This document shows positions 1 to 12,785 of a DNA stretch of 12,785 nt, one piece after another; position 1 is the stretch's first letter; the number at the start of each line of letters is the position of its first letter. Source of the stretch: a virus (taxonomy: Duplodnaviria > Heunggongvirae > Uroviricota > Caudoviricetes); the IMG/VR virus record IMGVR_UViG_2563366819_000004; one strand, 5' to 3'. The notes beneath the pieces are model-generated. The model did not search any database. It saw only the letters and a program-made list of their open reading frames with translations, and had not been told where the DNA came from. The position numbers were made by a program, and so were the translations under genes.

Positions 1-1074
1 TCATTTGTCGATTTCAATTTTGTCCCATTCCCGTCCACGGCGGTCCCTATACCGCGCCGCCATTGAATCTGATTTATGCCCGAGAAGACGTTGAGCAAAC
101 TTATCGCCAATCTGGTTCCGGTATAGCCTCGCTGACAGGCTACGCAGTTCATGGAATGTTGGCGGGTCTCCATCAAATGAGAGTCCAGATGCATTTCTCG
201 CCTTTGTAAAATACTTCGATACTGTTTTAGGGGAAAGCGGATCGTGATGCTTTGATGCGATTATAGTTTCACTGCCGCTGGCCTCCCTGCATTTCTGTAG
301 TGTATCAGCCAATGAGATATTGAGCGCGTCAATCGTTAGCGTTAGCGGAATGGCGAGCTTAGCCCCTGTTTTACTCTGTTCAATGTGAAGATGGTTGTCG
401 TTTATGTCTGACCATTTCATTCTACACAAATCGCCCACTCTCTGCCCTGTAACGACCGCCAAATCCATTGCCAGCCTCAGCCAGATTGGGAGAGGTTCGG
501 CTGCATGGTAAATCGCGACATACTCATTAGCCGTCAGCCTTGAGCGCCTTACTTCTGACTTTGCTGTGCGGGTCGCTGTTACTGGATTCGTTTCCACATG
601 CCCCTCGGCTATTGCCTCACGAAAAACGTCAACAAGGGTTGACCTGATTAATTTTGCGGAAGCCGCTTTACCTTCTGCTACGTAGGTGTTTAGCATTGCT
701 GCCACCTCTTTCGTTGATATGTCAGTGAGCGGTTTGTCCGGCAATTTTCTTCGAATTGCCCTGATTTTGCTGGCGTAGTCGAGTAGAGTTTTCGGTCTGA
801 TACCCCTCTCGCTGATGATTGTTTCATATCGGTCAAGCCACGTATGAAGAGTGATTGCGTCAGCGCCTTTAATCCTGTCGATCAGTGACTCACGCCTGCT
901 CTCGGATAGCAACTCAATATTGGCCTGAATGGCCTCTGAAACTGCTATCCTTCTGTCTCTGCCTAATCCGAACTCTTTACCCGTCCTTGGGTCCCTGTAG
1001 CAGTAATATCCATTGTTTCTTATATAAAGGTTAGGGGGTAAATCCCGGCGCTCATGACTTCGCCTTCTTCCCAT
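1..1074 (-). CDS. int: Tyrosine site-specific integrase, lambda Int-type (357 aa, complete)
   Basis: Translation begins MGRRRSHERRDLPPNLYIRNNGYYCYRDPRTGKEFGLGRDRR and ends RGREWDKIEIDK, which I recognise as very close to phage lambda Int. ATG at 1074..1072, stop at 3..1. Overlapped at its 5' end by xis, as in lambda. Confidence 0.95.
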   Translation of the reverse strand: MGRRRSHERRDLPPNLYIRNNGYYCYRDPRTGKEFGLGRDRRIAVSEAIQANIELLSESRRESLIDRIKGADAITLHTWLDRYETIISERGIRPKTLLDYASKIRAIRRKLPDKPLTDISTKEVAAMLNTYVAEGKAASAKLIRSTLVDVFREAIAEGHVETNPVTATRTAKSEVRRSRLTANEYVAIYHAAEPLPIWLRLAMDLAVVTGQRVGDLCRMKWSDINDNHLHIEQSKTGAKLAIPLTLTIDALNISLADTLQKCREASGSETIIASKHHDPLSPKTVSKYFTKARNASGLSFDGDPPTFHELRSLSARLYRNQIGDKFAQRLLGHKSDSMAARYRDRRGREWDKIEIDK

Positions 1075-1270
1075 TTCTGATCCTCTTCAAAAGGCTACCT
1101 GTTACTGGTCGATTTAAGTCAACCTTTACCGCTGATTCGTGGAACAGATACTCTCTTCCATCCTTAACCGGAGGAGGGAATATCCTGCACTCGCGTACCC
1201 ATCGACGAACTGTTTCAAGGCTTCTTGGGCGTCGCTGGCGTGCGTTCCACTCCTGAAGTGTCAAGTACAT
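1052..1270 (-). CDS. xis: Excisionase Xis (72 aa, complete)
   Basis: Translation MYLTLQEWNARQRRPRSLETVRRWVRECRIFPPPVKDGREYLFHESAVKVDLNRPVTG.LLKRIRNGKKAKS is essentially lambda Xis from memory. Overlaps the int start by 23 bp, the classic lambda arrangement. Confidence 0.93.
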   Translation of the reverse strand: MYLTLQEWNARQRRPRSLETVRRWVRECRIFPPPVKDGREYLFHESAVKVDLNRPVTGSLLKRIRNGKKAKS

Positions 1271-1375
1271 CGCAAAGTCTTCGCAATTACACGCAAGAAA
1301 AGCTGCATTGATGCGGCAATGGTAGGTCTGGATATCTTGAGAAATGAACAGGCCTCATCGAGTGTGAGGCTGTGG

Positions 1376-1657
1376 TTAGTCCTTGCGTAACTCGCTAATT
1401 CTTCTGTAAGTCTCTGGTGCTTTGTTTCCGTGTATCTTCATTTCAGACTTCAACAGAGCAACGAGGGAATCCCATTCGTTGAGGATGCCTTTGAATGCCG
1501 GAACGCGCTTTGCAACCTTGTCGAATGAATCTCTGATTTCTGGAATCTGCTCAACAAGTGCAACGCATCGTCGGAAATCGGCTGCGTCATGTGGAGCGCC
1601 GAAGTGATGACCATAGATATTCTTTTTCAGTCCACATGCGATTGAGGCAAGAGTTGC
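1376..1657 (-). pseudogene. 3' portion of a small leftward accessory gene split by the IS100-like insertion
   Basis: The minus-strand ORF has no ATG; it opens with TTG immediately inside the IS boundary. Removing the IS and one copy of the target duplication joins it in frame to the fragment at 3614..3681, giving a 114-aa protein MSDLAMKVLKWQSTGDVGISSATLASIACGLKKNIYGHHFGAP...RRISELRKD. Product not recognised. Confidence 0.6.
1653..1657. repeat. Target-site duplication GTTGC (left copy) of the IS100-like insertion
   Basis: GTTGC immediately precedes the IS left terminus TGT at 1658 and recurs at 3614..3618 right after the right terminus ACA. A 5-bp duplication fits the IS21 family. Confidence 0.65.
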
Positions 1658-1685
1658 TGTTACCAACGGTGCAAAACTGATCCAC
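1658..1685. repeat. IS100-like left terminal inverted repeat
   Basis: TGTTACCAACGGTGCAAAACTGATCCAC matches the reverse complement of 3586..3613 (TGTCAACAACGGGTAAAAAGTGATCCAC) at 22 of 28 positions. Confidence 0.55.
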
Positions 1686-1715
1686 CCCAGCGGTTGAAAA
1701 TTGATCCAGGGGTTA

Positions 1716-3545
<1,830 letters not shown>

Positions 3546-3585
3546 ACAAGGTGGATCAATATTAAACCGTTGGTGGTGACGGTTA

Positions 3586-3613
3586 GTGGATCACTTTTTA
3601 CCCGTTGTTGACA
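3586..3613. repeat. IS100-like right terminal inverted repeat
   Basis: Reverse complement matches the left terminus at 22 of 28 positions. A second inward copy of the motif, ACCAACGG followed by TGATCCAC, lies at about 3551..3577. Confidence 0.55.
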
Positions 3614-3681
3614 GTTGCGCTACTGATGCCGACATCGCCAGTCGATTGCCATTTCAAAACCTTCATAGCCAAATCTGACAT
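3614..3681 (-). pseudogene. 5' portion of the same IS-split accessory gene
   Basis: Minus-strand ATG at 3681..3679 preceded by GGAG with about 8 nt spacing. Translation MSDLAMKVLKWQSTGDVGISSAT then runs into the IS right end and stops after 3 IS-encoded codons. Confidence 0.55.
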
Positions 3682-3756
3682 TTCTTGTCTCCATAAAACA
3701 AAACCCGCCGTAGCGAGTTCAGATAAAAGAAATCCCCGCGAGTGCGAGGATTGTTA

Positions 3757-3885
3757 TTCAATGCCGATATTTACCTTTATCGCGTATACCTTTACCGGTT
3801 TATCGCCAAAGTGTGGATGTGTGATTGTCTTTATTTCATATCCGTCATACGGGACGTCAATTCTACGACTGGAGTCGTCGCGCTT
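3757..3885 (-). other. Possible 3' remnant of a leftward early gene at the deletion junction
   Basis: Minus-strand frame ends ...[36 protein letters not shown] with stop at 3756..3754. There is no internal start; the upstream part of the frame is antisense to the coat gene, so only the tail can be genuine. Product not recognised. Confidence 0.3.
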
Positions 3886-4937
3886 CGGATAACGATTTCT
3901 TCGAGCTTCGTGCAGATGACCTGCGTGATGAGCGTTCTTACCGTCGCCGCATCCAGGCATCCGCCAAAAAACTGGCGAATAACATTGAGTCAGCGATTGC
4001 CAAACAGGCAACTGAAATGGGCTCGCTTGTTGTTCACGATACCCGCGCAATTGGTCCATCTACTGGCCTGTCTGGCTGGGATTTTGTGTCTGATGCAGAG
4101 CGCCTGATGTTCTCCCGTGAGCTAAACCGCGATATGGGCATCAGTTACTTCCTGAACCCTGACGATTACCGCAAAGCAGGCCGCAACCTGGTAGATGGTG
4201 ACATCTTTGGTCGCGTTCCTGAAGAAGCGTATCGTAACGGTACTATTCAGCGTCAGATTGCTGGCTTTGATGAAATTCTTCGCTCACCGAAACTTCCGGC
4301 AGTTACCAAGTCAACCGCTACTGGTGTAACTGTTTCTGGTGCGCAGAAGTTTAAGCCGCAGGCATACACCCTTGATACCGATGGTAACAAAGAGAACGTC
4401 GACAACCGTGTTGCAACGGTGACCGTATCCTCCACCACCGGATTTAAGCGCGGCGACAAAATCAGCTTCACTGGTGTGAAATTCCTGTCTCAGATGGCGA
4501 AGAACGTGCTGACTGATGATGCGACTTTCTCAATCACCCGTGTGATCGATAGTACTCACATCGAAATCACGCCGAAGCCGATTGCACTGGATGACGCGTC
4601 ACTGACAAAAGAAGAGAAGGCTTACGCTAATGTAAACACCTCTCTTGCTGATAACACTCCGGTGAACGTTCTGAACGTGGCAACAACCACCGCTAACGTG
4701 TTCTGGGCTGATGACTCAATCCGTCTGCTGTCTCAGCCGATCCCGGTAACCCATGAACTGTTTGCTGGCATGAAAACGTCTTCCTTCAGCATTCCTGGTA
4801 TTGGTGTTAACGGCATCTTCGCAACGCAGGGTGATATCAACACTCTGTCTGGTAAGTGCCGTATTGCTGTGTGGTATTCAGCATGTGCTGTACGACCAGA
4901 GGCAATTGGTGTTGGTCTGCCTAACCAGACCGCGTGA
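3886..4937 (+). pseudogene. Major capsid (coat) protein, P22 gp5 type, 5'-truncated (about 80 N-terminal codons missing)
   Basis: From [32 protein letters not shown] to the C-terminus ...[14 protein letters not shown] the translation is collinear with P22 coat protein as I recall it. Upstream in-frame sequence shows no coat similarity and hits TGA at 3822..3824. No ATG or ribosome-binding site; the ORF track start at 3825 is TTG. Confidence 0.85.
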
Positions 4938-4943
4938 TAACCA

Positions 4944-4967
4944 GAGGGAGCTTCGGCTCCCTTTTTT
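4944..4967 (+). terminator. Rho-independent terminator downstream of the coat gene
   Basis: GGGAGC-TTCG-GCTCCC hairpin (6-7 bp GC-rich stem, UUCG-type tetraloop) followed by TTTTTT, starting 7 nt after the coat stop. Confidence 0.65.
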
Positions 4968-5030
4968 ATCTGGAGACAAGCATGACACACATGATCTTTC
5001 GCCATGGCAACATGAAGAAGTGGAAAGGCG

Positions 5031-5226
<196 letters not shown>

Positions 5227-5249
<23 letters not shown>

Positions 5250-5646
5250 TTTAGTTCTTGCGGCATTACGTAAGCTCGGTGTGGCATCAAATGCCACGTT
5301 AACCGATGTCGAACCTCAGTCCATGGAAGATGGTGTCAACGACCTTGAAATGATGATGGTGGAATGGCTTGGCGGTGATGCGTCACCAGGTATCAACGTT
5401 GGCTACATTTTCGCTGATGCAGATGTCGCTCCAGATCCGGGCGATGAGCACGGTTTATCAAATAACGCTATCAATGCCGTCATTTTCAACCTTGCCTGCC
5501 GCATTGCTCCAGATTATGCGCTGGAAGCGTCTGCAAAACTTATAACCACTGCCAGATACGGGAAAGAGCGACTCGTCAAACTGTCTGCAATGGACAGAGC
5601 AAAAGCCGCTAAATGTAAGTCCGGTTACCCGTGTTGGTCACCTTGA
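5227..5646 (+). CDS. Head-completion / portal-binding protein, P22 gp4-like (139 aa)
   Basis: First gene downstream of coat, as in P22-like gene order. ATG at 5227 with AAGG 9 nt upstream. Assignment is by position and size plus partial sequence recollection. An upstream in-frame ATG at 5122 would add a (QS)n leader but has no usable ribosome-binding spacing. Confidence 0.6.
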
Positions 5647-5726
5647 TGATGCGTACATGAGTAACGGAAAACCGGTAGGAATCACCCTCTATCAATTACC
5701 TCGTTCGAAATATGAGGAGCTAATAA

Positions 5727-6386
5727 ATGTTAGTACTTAGCAAAAGCTTCAAGAATAAATTGCTTCCCATGAATGGGTATATGAAAGGCGGCAGCGACTC
5801 CGGATCTAAAGCCCAGGCACGCGCAACTGAAAAGGGCATCGAACTGCAGCGTGAAATGTGGCAGACGAACATGCAAAACCTTGCACCGTTCACGCCACTC
5901 GCTCAGCAGTACGTATCACAGTTACAAAATCTTTCCTCTCTTCAGGGGCAAGGTCAGGCGCTTAACCAGTATTACAACTCCCAGCAGTATAAAGACCTTG
6001 CAGGGCAGGCGCGTTACCAGAGTCTGGCAGCAGCAGAGGCAACGGGTGGATTAGGCTCTACAGCGACAGGAAACCAGTTAGCAGCAATCGCACCTACACT
6101 CGGTCAAAACTGGCTGTCAGGTCAGATGAATAACTACAACAATCTGGCAAATATCGGCCTTGGTGCTCTTACAGGTCAGGCAAACGCTGGGCAGAACTAC
6201 GCTAACAACGTCAGCCAATTGTATCAACAGCAGGCGGCGGCAGCGGCAGCAAATGCCAATAAACCGTCTGGTTTTCAGAGTGCTCTCGGTAGAGCTGCGG
6301 CAGGTGCTGCGATGGGTACTGCAATCATGCCTGGTTGGGGTACAGCAATTGGTGCTGGCGTCGGCCTTCTTGGTTCACTTTTTTAA
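5727..6386 (+). CDS. Ejection (DNA transfer) protein, P22 gp7-like (219 aa)
   Basis: Strong GAGGAG 7 nt upstream of the ATG. Q/N/A/G-rich with a C-terminal glycine-zipper hydrophobic segment (GAAMGTAIMPGWGTAIGAGVGLLGSLF). Size and position match the first of three ejection genes in P22-like phages. Not verified by similarity search. Confidence 0.5.
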   Translation: MLVLSKSFKNKLLPMNGYMKGGSDSGSKAQARATEKGIELQREMWQTNMQNLAPFTPLAQQYVSQLQNLSSLQGQGQALNQYYNSQQYKDLAGQARYQSLAAAEATGGLGSTATGNQLAAIAPTLGQNWLSGQMNNYNNLANIGLGALTGQANAGQNYANNVSQLYQQQAAAAAANANKPSGFQSALGRAAAGAAMGTAIMPGWGTAIGAGVGLLGSLF

Positions 6387-6398
6387 TGGAGGTGTCTC

Positions 6399-7700
6399 TT
6401 GGCTACATGGCAACAGGCTGGTAATTCAGGCGCGCTTCTTGCCGGGTTAGGCGGCATGAACTCCAACGCTCCAAGAGCAAGTGATGCAGACGCCACGCTT
6501 GCATACATTCGACAGAATAACGAGATGGAGCGTTCAGGACGTAATAACGTTGGCTTGCAGGCTTTGCAGGGAATTTCATCTGTCATGGATATGTATAAGC
6601 AGATGGATCAGCAGAAGCGACAGCAAGAGTTTCAGCAGGCTTATGCTGATGCATATACATCTGGTGACCGCGATGCAATGCGAAAACTGGCATCACAGTA
6701 TCCTGAGCAGTTTGACGCTGTAAGAAACGGCATGAAATTTGTCGATGAAGACCAGCGTTCCACTGTCGGTACACTGGCAGCAAGTGCCAGACTCGCAGCT
6801 TCATCTCCAGAAGCCATGATGTCATGGTTGCAGAACAACTCATCTGAGCTTACTCGTGCCGGAGTAGACCCTCTGGATGTGGCGAAAATGTATCAGCAAA
6901 ATCCACAAGGTTTCACAGATTTTGTTGATCACCTTGGAATGGCTGCTCTTGGTCCGATTGACTACTTCAATGTTCAGGACAAGATGGCTGGTCGTGAAAT
7001 TGACCGAGGCAGGCTGGCAGAGACAATCCGCAGCAATCAGGCTGGAGAAGCACTAACAGCTCTAGGTCAGGACATCCAGATACGTGGACAGAACATCAGC
7101 GCACAGAATGCTGCTCTTTCCAGAGAAATACAAAGAGCAGAATTACAAGAAAAGGCTCTGGACAGACAGATAGCCAGAGAAAGTAATCAGTTAAAGCTTG
7201 AAGAGCTAAAACAGAAACAGGCAGATGTTCGGCAAAAGGCTGACATAGCCCGTGCTGACAGGCAGGCCGCCGCTCAGGGTGCAGTTGATACGTTCAGCAC
7301 CGCGCTTGATTCTCTCAACGAGATAGAGCAAAGCCCCGGCCTTTCAAAAGCAGTAGGAATTCGCTCAGCGTTTCCGACAGTTCCTGGCTCTGATGCGGCT
7401 AACTTTGAAGCAAGGCTCGACACCTTTAAAGCTCAAACTTTCCTTCCTATGGTGCAGTCCCTTAAGGGGATGGGGGCTTTTTCAGATGCTGAGGGTAAAA
7501 AATTATCCGATGCGGTTGGTGCACTAAGCCCCAAAATGAGTGAAAAGGCTTTTCGTGACTCTATCGGAAAGATTAGAAATCAGCTTGAAATCAAGTTGAG
7601 CACTGTTAAAAAACAGTTTGATTATCAGAAGCCAGTACAGAATACGCCAGGGCAACAATCTACTACTGGCAGTAACTTTTCTTCACTATGGGGTGATTAA
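6399..7700 (+). CDS. Ejection protein, P22 gp20-like (433 aa); TTG start
   Basis: GGAGG 6 nt upstream of TTG at 6399, 12 nt after the preceding stop. Coiled-coil-like central region. Size and order fit gp20. Stop overlaps the next start (TAATG). Confidence 0.5.
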   Translation: MATWQQAGNSGALLAGLGGMNSNAPRASDADATLAYIRQNNEMERSGRNNVGLQALQGISSVMDMYKQMDQQKRQQEFQQAYADAYTSGDRDAMRKLASQYPEQFDAVRNGMKFVDEDQRSTVGTLAASARLAASSPEAMMSWLQNNSSELTRAGVDPLDVAKMYQQNPQGFTDFVDHLGMAALGPIDYFNVQDKMAGREIDRGRLAETIRSNQAGEALTALGQDIQIRGQNISAQNAALSREIQRAELQEKALDRQIARESNQLKLEELKQKQADVRQKADIARADRQAAAQGAVDTFSTALDSLNEIEQSPGLSKAVGIRSAFPTVPGSDAANFEARLDTFKAQTFLPMVQSLKGMGAFSDAEGKKLSDAVGALSPKMSEKAFRDSIGKIRNQLEIKLSTVKKQFDYQKPVQNTPGQQSTTGSNFSSLWGD

Positions 7701-9696
7701 TGGCTAAAGCATGGAAAGATGTTATCGCCTCTCCACAGTATCAGGCGTTAGCACCAGAACAAAAAGCGAAGGCGCAGGAGCAATACTTCAATGAAGTCGT
7801 TGCCCCGCAAGCCGGAGAAAATGCAGAGCAGGCTAAGCAAGCTTTCTATGCTGCCTATCCATTGCCATCTGCGCAGCCAGTGGAGACACAGCAACCAGTA
7901 GCACAGCAACAACCACAGCAAAGTGGATTTATGTCTGACCTTGGCGAAGCAGTAAAAGAGACTGGTCGCGGACTGGTGCAGGCCGGCGTGAAAGTGGCAA
8001 ACATACCTGCATCAGTTGCCGATGCTGTAACAAGCGCGGCGGCTTGGGCTGGCGGTAAACTCGGCATTGGCGATGGGACATATCAACCAGCGCCACGAGT
8101 AACAACGCAGGGATTAGAGCAGGACTTTGGCCTTCAGCAAGGCGCGCTGACTCCACAAACGACAGAGGGCAGGGTATTTGCTGAAGCATTGCCTTACCTC
8201 ACTCCTGCTGGTGTTGAGAGAGCGGCAACACAGGCACCAACACTTGCTGGTCGAATTGCTCAGGGGGCAACTCGCCTTCTCTTAGAAAAGCAGTTGGATC
8301 ACTTGCTGTAAATAGTGCGAAAGATGATGCGGAAGCACTCGCCACCGATTTAGGCGTTGGCGTTCTGTCTGGCGGTGCTATTAACGTTGCCGGACGTGGA
8401 TTAGGTGCTGCTTATCGTGGCGTTCGTGGCGCGATAGCACCCGAAGCGCAACAGGCTATCAGGTTTGCAGAGCGTGAAGGCGTACCTCTGCACACCACAG
8501 ACCTGTTACAACCGACTTCCCGCGTCGGGAAAATGGCGCAGACGACAGCGGAAAATATCCCTCTGGCTGGCACAAGCGGAATGAGAGCAACGCAACAGGA
8601 AGCGAGAAGCCAGTTGGTGCAGAGATTTGCCGATAAATTCGGTGAGTATGATCCAGCGGTTGTTATTGACAGCCTTAAAGCGAAAACATCAGGAATTCGT
8701 CGTGCCGCCGGTAATAGACTGGAGCAGGTTCAGAATGCTATGGCTGGAGTAAACATTCAGCCTGCGCGAGCAATTCAGCAGATTGATACAGAAATATCTA
8801 ACCTGCAGAAGCTTGGTAAGGTTGCTGATAACGAGACTATTTCAAAACTTCAGTCCTATCGTGATGAGCTTGTTCGCAATGCTGGTCCTGATGGTCCGGT
8901 AAATCTGGATTTGAAGCAATTAAGCGATCTGCGCAGCCAGTTCAGAATGGACGTGAAGGGTGAGCGACCAGTGTTACCAAACCGTTCCGATGCTGCCATT
9001 CAGCGCGTTTACAAGGCAATGACCGACGATATCAATGGTGCCATTGGTCAGAATCTTGGCAACGATACTCTCCGTAAATATCAGCAGGCCAATGCCGTCT
9101 ACGCTGACGAAGCGGCGAAACTAAAGAATACCAGGCTGAAGAATGGTCTCATGAAAGGCGACCTGACGCCGGAAGTTGTCAACAACATGCTATTCAGCAA
9201 GAACAAATCGGAAATTAAGACGCTGTATAACTCAGTTGGTCGTGTTGGCAGGGCGCAAATGCGCAATGGCATCATTGGAAAGGCGATGGAGAAATCAGGT
9301 GGATCCCCTGACCAGTTCCTTCGGCAGCTTAACATCCTGCAAAACCAGACTGGAATAACATTTAAGGGGCAGGATGGTGCTTATCTGAAAGGATTGAAAA
9401 ACTACCTTCAATCCACGCAGCAGGCTGCAAAAGCGGCAGTAACAACCCCCACAGGGCAGCAAACCATCCCGTTCATTATCGGGTATGGGACGGCAATGAA
9501 CCCTGCAACAACTGGCGCAGCAGTAAGCTACGGACTTCTTACTCGCACCTATGAGAGCGAGCCATTCAGAAATGCAATGCTCCGAATGGCAAACACTCCA
9601 CGCGGATCAACAGCGTTTGAGAAAGCCATGCAGCAAGCGCAAAAAGCGATTAATGCACTGACGCAGGGTGCGAAGTCTGATTCGTTGTCAGAATAG
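7700..9696 (+). pseudogene. Ejection protein, P22 gp16-like, interrupted by a frameshift (two ORFs: 7700..8311 and 8218..9696)
   Basis: The 7700 frame stops at 8311; a second frame is open from 8218 and continues to 9696 with no start codon until 8533. The overlap contains an A4 tract at 8286..8289; adding one A there fuses the frames into a single protein of about 665 aa (...ATRLLLEK/AVGSLAVNSAKDD...). Confidence 0.55.
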
Positions 9697-9785
9697 CTTT
9701 GCAAACACCAGGAGCGTGCAAAAACCAAATATGTAGAACGTAATATTCAGTATGTCTCTTTGCATAAATCCTCCGTAACTGATGG

Positions 9786-10046
9786 TTAGCCGCTGTCTTT
9801 TTTATATAGCTCTTTGAGCGTATCAAAGACAATTTTCTTAACCATATCAGATTGTTGTTCTGCCATACGCTCTGCATCGTCAATGTAAACTGATGCAGAG
9901 CTTTGTTTAGTCAATGATTCTTCAATCGCTGCAATTATCTCTGAGTTCAGCGACCTGTTATTCATCTTCGCGCGCTGTTTAATTTTCGCGTGGAGTTCAT
10001 ATGGAAGTCTCAAGTGAAACTGCGCCTCGTCGTATTTGCTGTACAT
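9786..10046 (-). CDS. mnt: Mnt-type ribbon-helix-helix repressor (86 aa)
   Basis: Translation MYSKYDEAQFHLRLPYELHAKIKQRAKMNNRSLNSEIIAAIEESL...DAERMAEQQSDMVKKIVFDTLKELYKKDSG is collinear with P22 Mnt as I recall it. Start taken at the second in-frame ATG (10046), which has GAGG 8 nt upstream; the ORF track start at 10079 has no ribosome-binding site. Confidence 0.85.
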   Translation of the reverse strand: MYSKYDEAQFHLRLPYELHAKIKQRAKMNNRSLNSEIIAAIEESLTKQSSASVYIDDAERMAEQQSDMVKKIVFDTLKELYKKDSG

Positions 10047-10167
10047 CCTTGATGCCTCACCAGTTGGGTGGAATGGCATCGTAACCTACTGGATAAATAC
10101 TCAATAGTACCATTTCGGTATGCAATCACATCATGGTTGCATCATATCATTCTTCTGGAGCAATGAT
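10047..10167. promoter_or_regulatory. Divergent intergenic control region between mnt and the tailspike gene
   Basis: 121-bp AT-rich spacer between divergent starts. Contains short inverted repeats (ATGCAA-N11-TTGCAT at about 10120..10142; TACT-N4-AGTA at about 10099..10110). No promoter or operator is proven. Confidence 0.35.
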
Positions 10168-11892
10168 ATGTCAGATATCACCGCAAATGTTGTGGTAAGC
10201 ATGCCTTCGCAACTATTTACTATGGCTCGTTCTTTTAAAGCCGTAGCCAATGGCAAAATTCATATCGGGAAAATTGACACTGACCCGGTAAATCCTGAAA
10301 ACCAGATTCAGGTTTATGTAGAGAATGAAGACGGTTCTCACGTCCCTGTTTCGCAACCAATCATCATTAACGCTGCTGGATATCCGGTATACAACGGACA
10401 GATTGCCAAATTCGTTACCGTGCAAGGCCATTCTATGGCTGTTTATGATGCGTATGGTGCGCAGCAGTTCTATTTTCCTAATATTCTGAAATATGATCCA
10501 GACCAACTTAGACAAGATCTTTCAAATGGCGGAGATAGTTTAGGTGATAGCTTGGTAGCTGTTAATCAGCCAGTTATTGAAAGCATAAAAAGAACCCAGC
10601 ATGATAAAAACTATGAATCTATATCTTTACGTGATTTTTCTGGTTCAATTGGTGAAGACTGGACTATACCGCTACAAAATGCATTTAATTGGTTATCATC
10701 TGGACCAAATAGAACACTTGTGATACCTCATGACGGAGTATTTGGACTTACATCCGCAACTCTTACTCTTAATGGAGACTTAAGTAGAAATTCCAGAATT
10801 GTATGTGAAGGTAGTTTGAAGCATTTAAGAACAACCGGAGATATGATAACGATCTCTGGCGGAATGTACGGTGAGTTTGAATTCAATATTTATGGGAGTG
10901 GGTATAATCCAGAAAGTATCCCTGACTATCAAATGCCGGATCCAGATGGATGTCAACAGGCAATTGTCTTTGCTGGTAATAGGGCGTGCAAGCTTAAGAT
11001 AATGGCTATAGGATACCCTGGACGTGTATTAAGAACTAAACAAGTTGGGCCTGTGAAGCAAAGTTTTATCGATCTTGATATTACAACGGGCAATGATACT
11101 TGCGGACAAGCAATGTATCTTCAGGGTACTGATGCTTTTGGGTGCATTAGCTTTGCTAACACCAACTGGGATTATTATGGCAGTGTTATTGATGGAATAA
11201 CTGATTTAAGCATTGTCTATTGGGAGGCTGGCTCAAAAGGTTCTAACACACCGGAGGTTACGTTTGATAATATAAATAACTGTCATATTGGAACCATTGC
11301 AATAGGGCAGGATGGAACTAACTCTGCTTTATTAGTTAACAGTGGTAGAGCAATCACTATTCAAAAGGCTTTGCTCGGAGAGTCAACCTACGGGTTAGAA
11401 GTGATTGGAAGTGGAGTAGGGCAGCCAATGCATCAACTGACAATACATTCACTACTATGTGCTAACATAAGAACTGCTGGAGTCAGGCTTTCAAATGCGG
11501 TTGGAGTTACAATCAAAGACCATGTCTTTGACGGATGCCCTTACGATGTAATGTTTTTCAATTTGTGTCGGGATATAATTATAAAAGGCCATCATCGAAA
11601 CCCAATAATCGCATGTTTTTATGGTGTGGAATCGTCTACCATTGAAAATCTCACTTTAAATGGCAAGTTTTATACAGCCGGTAACAGTACGTTTTGTGAT
11701 TTCAGGCTTTCTGATACCATAAACGTGCTGATTGATGACTTTACAGTTGTTACACAAGGTAGCTACCTCATGCTTAAGGATGCGAACAATGGTGTTTCAG
11801 TAAGAGGTGGGAATTGGTCAGGAACTTTACTTCCTATTTCAACCGCAATTGAATTCCAGCCGCGAACCATAAAGGACGTAACAGGGTTTTAA
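10168..11892 (+). CDS. Tailspike protein (574 aa as annotated) with P22-type head-binding domain and divergent receptor-binding domain
   Basis: N-terminus [59 protein letters not shown]...[13 protein letters not shown]...LKYDPDQ is collinear with the P22 tailspike head-binding domain. The remainder is unrelated to the P22 endorhamnosidase domain and visibly AT-richer. GGAG 7 nt upstream of the ATG. Confidence 0.9.
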
Positions 11893-11907
11893 ACCAGAAA
11901 AACAAAC

Positions 11908-12159
11908 GTGGCTAAATCCTTCCCCATTGGTTCAGTTACAGGATCTAAGATTTCTTACGCTCACGGACTCTACCGTTCACCAACAGAGATTTCTGTGGTG
12001 ATACTTGACACCCCTGATGTATTAGGTGCTGCTAACTCTTCGATAATTGTGCAAAGTGTCGATAGCGTGAACATCGTTTTCAAATATGTAGGGAGTGAAA
12101 CACTAGCCAATACTCTAAACTTCAGGGTTACATTGAAAGCCGAGGACAGATCTAATTAA
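11908..12159 (+). CDS. In-frame downstream ORF (83 codons): either the displaced C-terminus of the tailspike or a small tailspike-associated protein
   Basis: Same frame as the tailspike, separated only by TAA (11890..11892) plus 5 codons. No ATG (GTG at 11908) and no Shine-Dalgarno. Beta-strand-rich composition. Followed immediately by a strong terminator. Confidence 0.4.
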   Translation: MAKSFPIGSVTGSKISYAHGLYRSPTEISVVILDTPDVLGAANSSIIVQSVDSVNIVFKYVGSETLANTLNFRVTLKAEDRSN

Positions 12160-12183
12160 AAAGGGGCTTTAGCCCCTTTTATT
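12158..12183 (+). terminator. Rho-independent terminator ending the tailspike transcription unit
   Basis: AAAAA-GGGGC-TTTA-GCCCC-TTTTATT directly after the TAA at 12157..12159; the A-run before and T-run after make it potentially bidirectional. Confidence 0.75.
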
Positions 12184-12195
12184 GTGCACAGAAAA

Positions 12196-12214
12196 CCCCC
12201 AGCTAGGCTGGGGG
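12196..12214. other. IS200-like left-end hairpin (8-bp stem CCCCCAGC / GCTGGGGG)
   Basis: Perfect 8-bp inverted repeat with a 3-nt loop, flanked by GAAAA on the plus strand. Position matches the IS200 left-end terminator-like hairpin that blocks read-through transcription. Confidence 0.6.
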
Positions 12215-12251
12215 TTCCGGAAAGCTTTCAGCTTTAAGCCAGTTATTAAAA

Positions 12252-12320
12252 CCCCTTTTGATTTGTTAAAACACCTTGCGGTCTGGCAACTGCAAGTGTC
12301 AAACAAGAAATCAAAAGGGG
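12252..12320 (+). promoter_or_regulatory. Long-range stem sequestering the tnpA Shine-Dalgarno
   Basis: CCCCTTTTGATTT (12252..12264) is the exact reverse complement of AAATCAAAAGGGG (12308..12320); the latter contains the AAGGGGG ribosome-binding site just upstream of the tnpA ATG at 12327. Confidence 0.6.
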
Positions 12321-12326
12321 GTCCCA

Positions 12327-12785
12327 ATGGGGAACGAAAAGAGCTTAGCGCACACCCGATGGAACTGTAAATATCACATAGTTTTTGCGCCAAAATACCG
12401 AAGACAGGTGTTCTACAGAGAGAAGCGTAGAGCAATAGGCAGTATTTTGAGAAAGCTGTGTGAGTGGAAAAGTGTACGGATTCTGGAAGCTGAATGCTGT
12501 GCAGATCATATCCATATGCTTGTGGAGATCCCGCCCAAAATGAGCGTATCCGGCTTTATGGGATATCTGAAAGGGAAAAGCAGTCTGATGCTTTACGAGC
12601 AGTTTGGTGATTTGAAATTCAAATACAGGAACAGGGAGTTCTGGTGCAGAGGGTACTACGTCGATACGGTGGGTAAGAACACGGCGAAGATACAGGATTA
12701 CATAAAGCACCAGCTTGAAGAGGATAAAATGGGAGAGCAGTTATCGATTCCCTATCCGGGCAGCCCGTTTACGGGCCGTAAGTAA
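12327..12785 (+). CDS. tnpA: IS200-family transposase TnpA (Y1/HUH type, 152 aa)
   Basis: Translation MGNEKSLAHTRWNCKYHIVFAPKYRRQVFY...CCADHIHMLVEIPPK...FWCRGYYVDTVG carries the HUH motif (HIHML) and the catalytic tyrosine region typical of IS200 TnpA. The ORF track start at 12276 is upstream of the true ATG. Stop is the last 3 nt of the window. Confidence 0.9.
   Translation: MGNEKSLAHTRWNCKYHIVFAPKYRRQVFYREKRRAIGSILRKLCEWKSVRILEAECCADHIHMLVEIPPKMSVSGFMGYLKGKSSLMLYEQFGDLKFKYRNREFWCRGYYVDTVGKNTAKIQDYIKHQLEEDKMGEQLSIPYPGSPFTGRK

Follow-up and report, generated by a model that had tools for sequence, protein, structure and literature searches.

Layout of the locus

The window analysed here is a stretch of 12,785 nt. 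Over positions 1-12185 it is 99.8% identical to part of the E. coli 19KM1831 genome that is flanked by torS and torT. Its main features are as follows:

1744..3545, + strand: IS21-family element (istA, istB), from Pfam rve and IstB_IS21 matches and the RefSeq annotation of the near-identical locus
3825..4937, + strand: capsid gene remnant without its N-terminus, from Pfam P22_CoatProtein (profile positions 84-422 of 423); annotated “missing N-terminus” in 19KM1831
5620..5635, no strand: junction of a 2.7-kb deletion relative to 19KM1831, from BLAST blocks; gp10, the tail needle gp26 and part of gp14 are lost
7700..9696, + strand: gp16-type ejection protein gene with a 1-nt deletion near 8282, leaving ORFs 7700-8311 and 8533-9696, from alignment with the intact S87 gene
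10168..11892, + strand: truncated tailspike ORF (574 aa and TAA) with head-binding domain, neck and predicted beta-helix body, from translation, Pfam, AF2 and Foldseek
11887..11892, + strand: lesion, TTT TAA against the intact GTT TCA, from DNA alignment and the polarised substitution table
11893..12159, + strand: putative orphaned coding sequence of the C-terminal domain, 88 codons and the original stop, outside the tailspike translation
12159..12185, + strand: intrinsic-terminator-like hairpin and U-tract ending the ancestral full-length gene, from folding; identical in 4/4 E. coli copies
12186..12785, + strand: IS200, left end and tnpA (12327-12785), from the point at which alignment with IS-free relatives diverges (12186)

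The tailspike ORF (10168-11892, 574 aa) starts at an ATG with GGAG 8 nt upstream, as read directly from the sequence, and its N-terminus, MSDITANVV..., is that of the P22/Sf6 head-binding domain. Codon 575 is a TAA (11890-11892), beyond which the frame runs uninterrupted through 88 sense codons (11893-12156) until a second TAA at 12157-12159; with the first stop replaced there would be 663 sense codons in total. This continuation is unlikely to be accidental: an open stretch of 88 codons is expected by chance in 0.25% of cases from base composition and was seen in 78 of 20,000 shuffles of the segment (P about 0.003), and the other five frames across it have 4-8 stops each. No ATG was found in its first part. 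Its sole in-frame start-like codon is the GTG at 11908, from which an 83-aa ORF (11908-12159) appears in the ORF list, and the sequence upstream of this codon, ACCAGAAAAACAAAC, contains no Shine-Dalgarno motif.

The final stop is followed directly by a hairpin, AAAAGGGGC-UUUA-GCCCCUUUU (12159-12180; -14 kcal/mol, z = -3.0 by folding), and then AUUGU; the hairpin is identical in all four E. coli copies compared (the window, 19KM1831, CT02 and S87). A rule-based scan of 11700-12400 for terminators and promoters detected none, the hairpin being confirmed by folding instead; the scan probably missed it since the T-run is taken up into the A/U-extended stem. The initial annotation, made from the sequence alone, had described a tailspike stopping at 11890..11892, a frame open for another 88 codons up to a terminator, and no ATG or Shine-Dalgarno sequence ahead of this continuation, and the direct sequence read and the folding agree with it on each of these points.

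Protein domains on either side of the stop

The N-terminal domain is recognizable by sequence: Pfam Head_binding (PF09008) covers residues 1-113 (E = 7.6e-67), and in a PDB sequence search Sf6 and P22 chains matched residues 1-114 and 1-212, i.e., the anchor and neck only, with E = 1e-74 to Sf6 residues 1-224. For the remainder we used an AF2 model of an intact homologue, 98% identical to the window protein. This model has a beta-helix at ~150-570 (pLDDT mostly >90) and a distinct beta-sandwich at 576-660 (pLDDT mostly 84-90, with a dip to ~61 at 611-620), and as a whole it matches the Sf6, P22, HK620, Det7 and Pam1 tailspikes in Foldseek with probability 1.0. With the predicted beta-helix running to ~570 and a separate domain occupying 576-660, codon 575 is therefore placed by the model at a domain boundary, where the beta-helix body gives way to a C-terminal beta-sandwich of lectin-like type. 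Body and C-terminal domain are contiguous in all homologues; in the window the TAA separates them, so that they are not encoded in the same translated chain.

Because the PDB sequence search matched the anchor and neck only, the tail was identified by its predicted fold. A Pfam search of the 88 residues gave no family, and a PHROGs search gave only a weak match (E = 0.004) to a family of unknown function. In monomer structure prediction, the window's own tail folds confidently as a compact domain, similar both to H-type lectins, which are trimeric, and to domains found at the C-terminus of other tailspikes. Fold comparison of the tail gave the following values:

Discoidin I (H-type lectin), 8.2
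LKA1 gp49, 8.0
Helix pomatia agglutinin, 7.5
phi297 gp61, 7.3
AP22 gp54, 6.8
KP32gp38, 5.7

The extreme C-terminus of the ancestral spike is thus predicted to be a six-strand, H-type-lectin-like beta-sandwich. It had been proposed that the tail is beta-strand-rich in the manner of tailspike trimerisation domains, and that folding the fused sequence would help to evaluate this. The separate sandwich at 576-660 in the model of the intact homologue bears out the general idea, and the likeness is to the lectin-like domains of LKA1, phi297, AP22 and KP32gp38 and not to the interdigitated C-terminus of the P22 type.

C-terminal domains matter for assembly in other spikes. The C-terminal region of the P22 tailspike is an auto-chaperone for trimer assembly (PMC3357383), and the equivalent lectin-like LEC domain of KP32gp38 is reportedly essential for trimerisation, the protein without this domain being still enzymatically active (PMC13082707). 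By analogy, the 574-aa product would not be expected to mature into a normal trimeric spike; the truncated beta-helix could retain some depolymerase activity, because KP32gp38 did so without its LEC domain.

Intact homologues and the ancestral state

By megablast, three complete E. coli genomes carry copies of the gene: 19KM1831, CT02 and S87. In 19KM1831 the annotated CDS has 1725 nt and carries the TAA, as in the window; in CT02 and S87 it has 1992 nt (663 aa) and spans both the window ORF and its continuation. The site reads GGG TTT TAA ACC in the first pair and GGG GTT TCA ACC in the second, the difference consisting of two substitutions, both G:C>T:A: 11887 G>T (V574F) and 11891 C>A (S575stop). 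All four copies share one and the same final stop and terminator.

More distant relatives give the same picture. A protein-collection search with the intact sequence returned 663-aa full-length relatives at 98, 81 and 66% identity, and further relatives at 40-65% identity in which the body and tail are joined to other N-terminal anchors (PF18668, PF03906 or none). In 15 homologues (40-98% identity, with at least three different N-terminal anchors) the tail is co-terminal and there is no break. Across the site they read ...[DQGN][VI].G[IV][SANT]TR.T..., and end 88 residues further on in ...K.E[DE]R[SA]N; position 575 is S, A, N or T in distant relatives P0001-P0015. All 574-aa alleles end in ...DVTGF, and all intact ones read ...DVTG[VI]S.... 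No relative among the homologues compared stops at the window's TAA, and none has a separate downstream gene.

Orthologues thus have a sense codon at the position of the stop and continue in frame to a shared terminus, and the alignments identify the TAA at 11890-11892 as a nonsense mutation of an ancestral TCA (Ser575). This was the option favored in the initial annotation, which had suggested aligning intact homologues over this position and had named, as the result that would speak against a mutation, homologues ending at the same point with a conserved downstream ORF having its own start. The alignment found TCA in CT02 and S87 and S/A/N/T further away, and that contrary arrangement was seen in no relative. 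The combined length had also been noted as close to that of the P22 tailspike (667 aa). This match is coincidental, because only the N-terminal head-binding domain matches P22/Sf6 by sequence; the meaningful number is the exact 663 aa of the true orthologues.

The two G:C>T:A transversions, 4 nt apart at 11887 and 11891, always occur together in the alleles examined, and no intermediate allele (TTT TCA or GTT TAA) is present among the 15 of 57 cluster members listed. Together they turn GGTT-TC-AACC into a longer inverted repeat, GGTTT-T-AAACC. A quasi-palindrome template switch was considered as the source of both and found unconvincing, since the register changes.

The receptor-binding part gave no megablast match among 50,697 phage records, its relatives being found only at the protein level. 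These include tail proteins of lytic Klebsiella podophages, which align with the module in one piece at 50-58% identity; in phi1_146013 the match is unbroken to the last codon of the annotated tail protein. This is a clear instance in which temperate phages of E. coli and lytic phages of Klebsiella have exchanged a receptor-binding module. The anchors joined to the beta-helix and lectin-like tail number at least three: the P22-type PF09008, PF18668, and the T7-type PF03906 (P0001-P0016; L016 862-3153).

Decay of the surrounding prophage

The RefSeq gene order at the 19KM1831 locus is integrase, excisionase, IS21-family element, a capsid gene lacking its N-terminus, frameshifted gp10, gp14 and gp16, the 574-aa tailspike, and then gtrC-gtrB-gtrA. 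The IS21 element, ISSen3-like by RefSeq naming of the near-identical copy, abuts the capsid gene remnant. It stands in place of the early, replication, lysis, terminase, portal and scaffold genes and of the N-terminal part of the capsid gene.

The window has a further 2.7-kb deletion: BLAST blocks pair its positions 630-5627 with 17068-22053 of locus L004, and 5626-12185 with 24769-31328. The deletion leaves a chimeric 174-aa ORF (5122-5646) of which the front part is gp4. In 19KM1831 there is instead an IS4 in the integrase gene, and the two remnants therefore decay independently. They have in common the IS21 element, the capsid remnant and the lesion in gp16. The last of these is annotated in 19KM1831 as “frameshifted”: CTTCTC-TTAG in the window against CTTCTCGCTG in S87, splitting the gene into ORFs of 203 and 387 aa.

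Directly behind the terminator is an IS200, and the window ends at its tnpA stop, a point at which many draft contigs break. The heptamer TTATTGT precedes the element and also makes up its right end. Two longer loci, L005 and L006, contain the full 709-bp IS200 with its Y1_Tnp gene (L005 12019-12727), followed by gtrC-gtrB-gtrA-torT; the O-antigen modification genes downstream of the IS200 in both (12763-15440), gtrC (DUF2142), gtrB and gtrA, are intact. Selection probably now acts on no other cargo of the remnant than these gtr genes, and this may be why the remnant persists.

The CT02 and S87 prophages are less decayed: the portal gene of CT02 is truncated, and the structural genes that remain are all intact. 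The element in the window has been inactivated by the IS21 insertion, the capsid truncation, the loss of gp10 and gp26, the gp16 frameshift and the IS200. Its gene content marks it as a badly decayed P22-like prophage remnant of E. coli that would no longer be inducible. No virion is possible from such an element, and therefore nothing selects for an intact spike.

Distribution of the truncated allele and pattern of substitution

The exact 574-aa protein is present on 62 contigs (135 index blocks), from E. coli wherever the source names an organism, and two more 574-aa variants occur in public collections. Ten fetched loci, from independent assemblies, are identical to the window in DNA sequence across the gene, tail and terminator, and in none of the copies is the ORF upstream of the stop further disrupted. 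The truncated allele is thus no artefact; it has spread clonally and become fixed in an E. coli lineage that has been sampled widely. In the 90% cluster, truncated forms are on more contigs than intact 663-aa forms, an excess that is explained by clonal sampling but would also be compatible with retention.

Changes were polarised with CT02 and S87 as outgroups. Derived changes common to the truncated lineage are V194L, T480I, V574F, S575stop and I615T, the last of these behind the stop; the window has in addition G124S, A363E, T370N and one synonymous change, and 19KM1831 has M233I and one synonymous change. In the truncated lineage there are thus 8 non-synonymous (plus 1 nonsense) to 2 synonymous substitutions, against 31:75 between the intact CT02 and S87 genes (Fisher's exact p = 0.0024, on a small sample of 10 substitutions). 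This pattern fits relaxed constraint on both sides of the stop. Decay is barely visible in the tail itself, which has a single substitution and no indel.

Of the 14 mismatches that separate the window from 19KM1831 over 5626-12185 (6.5 kb), seven are concentrated in a 745-bp part of the tailspike body (window 10532-11276, gene positions 365-1109), and five of these seven are non-synonymous. The cluster is either one of local drift or a small recombination patch.

Interpretation

Taken together, these results make it very probable that the tailspike gene is a nonsense-mutation pseudogene in a decayed E. coli prophage remnant between torS and torT. The gene has been hit by TCA>TAA at Ser575 and by the adjacent missense change GTT>TTT (V574F); in the reading we propose, translation would now halt at the junction of the beta-helix body and the C-terminal lectin-like beta-sandwich, and the 88 codons past the stop would be an untranslated relic of the last domain, the mutation being too young for their frame to have closed. 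Any 574-aa product would presumably be non-functional as a virion spike, because other spikes cannot form trimers without the corresponding C-terminal domain; nor could any virion use it, because the remnant is without portal, terminase, gp10 and tail needle.

Could the gene still be functional in some form? If the stop were read through or suppressed by an ochre suppressor, some full 663-aa tailspike would be made and the gene would work at a low level; the intact, in-register downstream frame and the wide occurrence of the truncated allele count in favor of such a model. UAA is the most efficiently terminated stop codon in E. coli. Here its context is GGGUUUUAAACC, UAA-A, which is not leaky; the 100 nt after the stop contain no stable RNA structure, their fold being no better than those of shuffles (z = +0.93), and a search for a suppressor tRNA found no tRNA gene in the window. 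Far from being conserved across homologues, the stop is confined to one near-clonal lineage, with a sense codon in all other relatives, and the substitutions point to relaxed constraint in a remnant that cannot build virions. Read-through, which had been listed earlier as a less likely option, fares poorly against this one-lineage UAA without downstream structure, and we regard it as very improbable. A frameshift at the U-rich GGGUUUUAAAC was also rejected: it would not restore the continuation, which is conserved in the zero frame, and the heptamer UUUAAAC is out of the register that a -1 shift requires. Alternatively, the continuation might be an independent small gene (83 aa from GTG 11908) encoding a partner or chaperone of the truncated spike, as had also been suggested. 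The ORF exists, and in silico its peptide folds as a compact domain; against this, the GTG has no Shine-Dalgarno sequence before it, the rule-based scan found no promoter-like site in 11700-12400, and the Val codon is not conserved, relatives reading TASAQT or TARALT there. In every relative the segment is the C-terminus of a large protein, and in none is it a separate gene with a start and ribosome-binding site of its own. The odds of such a gene seem extremely low.

A different possibility is that the host has retained the truncated head-binding and beta-helix protein for use as a polysaccharide depolymerase, soluble or monomeric, perhaps to remodel the O-antigen or capsule of that host or to hinder superinfecting phages. 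In favor of this, the truncation coincides neatly with the predicted domain boundary, in no copy is the ORF before the stop further disrupted, the allele is common, and KP32gp38 is described as active without its LEC domain. The adjoining gtrABC operon, moreover, is intact in L005 and L006, which means that some of the remnant has kept its usefulness. Working against this model, nearly every derived change upstream of the stop is non-synonymous (V194L, T480I, G124S, A363E, T370N, M233I), a pattern that points to drift and not to purifying selection; the element has lost its late-gene activator and late promoter region, and there would appear to be no export signal or lysis system left to release the protein. 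We consider its retention quite improbable, and there is likewise only a slender chance that the locus functions either through a domesticated, possibly monomeric depolymerase acting with gtrABC (in surface remodelling or a block to superinfection) or through a UAA read-through trickle of full-length spike. That the gene is intact and the stop an error of sequencing or assembly has negligible probability: this has in its favor only that it is a general possibility, and both base changes are present in one complete genome and 10 independent assemblies from different projects. A nonsense-mutation pseudogene therefore remains our preferred reading.

Seen as a pseudogene, the locus records a textbook step of prophage decay, a point nonsense mutation in a gene without a virion to serve, and carries little biological weight. 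It has some practical consequences. RefSeq names the 574-aa product “phage head-binding domain-containing protein” rather than a pseudogene (NZ_CP151026.1, WP_137511692.1; L001 2669-4393), and with this naming as a normal protein the truncated sequence contaminates catalogues of tailspikes and depolymerases. The stop also marks a clean natural boundary between beta-helix and lectin-like domain in a depolymerase module shared with lytic Klebsiella phages, which could guide construct design, and the E. coli clone with the torS-torT remnant can conveniently be recognized by the paired G:C>T:A changes, which serve as a lineage marker.

Comparison with known systems

The closest counterparts are the intact 663-aa E. 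coli tailspikes (CT02 WP_223602112.1; S87 WP_479453820.1; cluster representative P0001), which are the same gene: they are 92.7-99.1% identical to the window in DNA sequence, with the same start, final stop and terminator, and the CT02 and S87 alleles differ from it in codons 574-575, which are GTT TCA, and in encoding the C-terminal domain. The tail proteins of Klebsiella podophages (phi1_146013 XCO38107.1, vB_KpnP_SU552A), putative capsule depolymerases, have a body and 88-aa tail like those of the window; they differ in having another N-terminal virion anchor and no internal stop, and belong to viable phages. Sf6 gp14 and P22 gp9 (PDB 7sg7, 2vbk, 2xc1) have the same plan of head-binding domain, neck or anchor, beta-helix and C-terminal domain, but their body and C-terminal domain have no detectable sequence similarity to those of the window. 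For LKA1 gp49, phi297 gp61, AP22 gp54 and KP32gp38, the likeness of the LEC or H-type lectin domains is one of fold, at only 4-11% identity.

A parallel to the lesion itself is found in P22 gene 9, for which chain-termination (amber) fragments without the C-terminal part reportedly fail to reach the native trimer (the work is that of Fane and King, in Genetics in 1987). Those were laboratory mutants of a spike with another C-terminal fold, whereas the window allele is natural and fixed in a prophage remnant. Each element of the description is thus already known in kind: the P22/Sf6 anchor, the depolymerase module shared with Klebsiella phages, and the nonsense mutation in a cryptic prophage.
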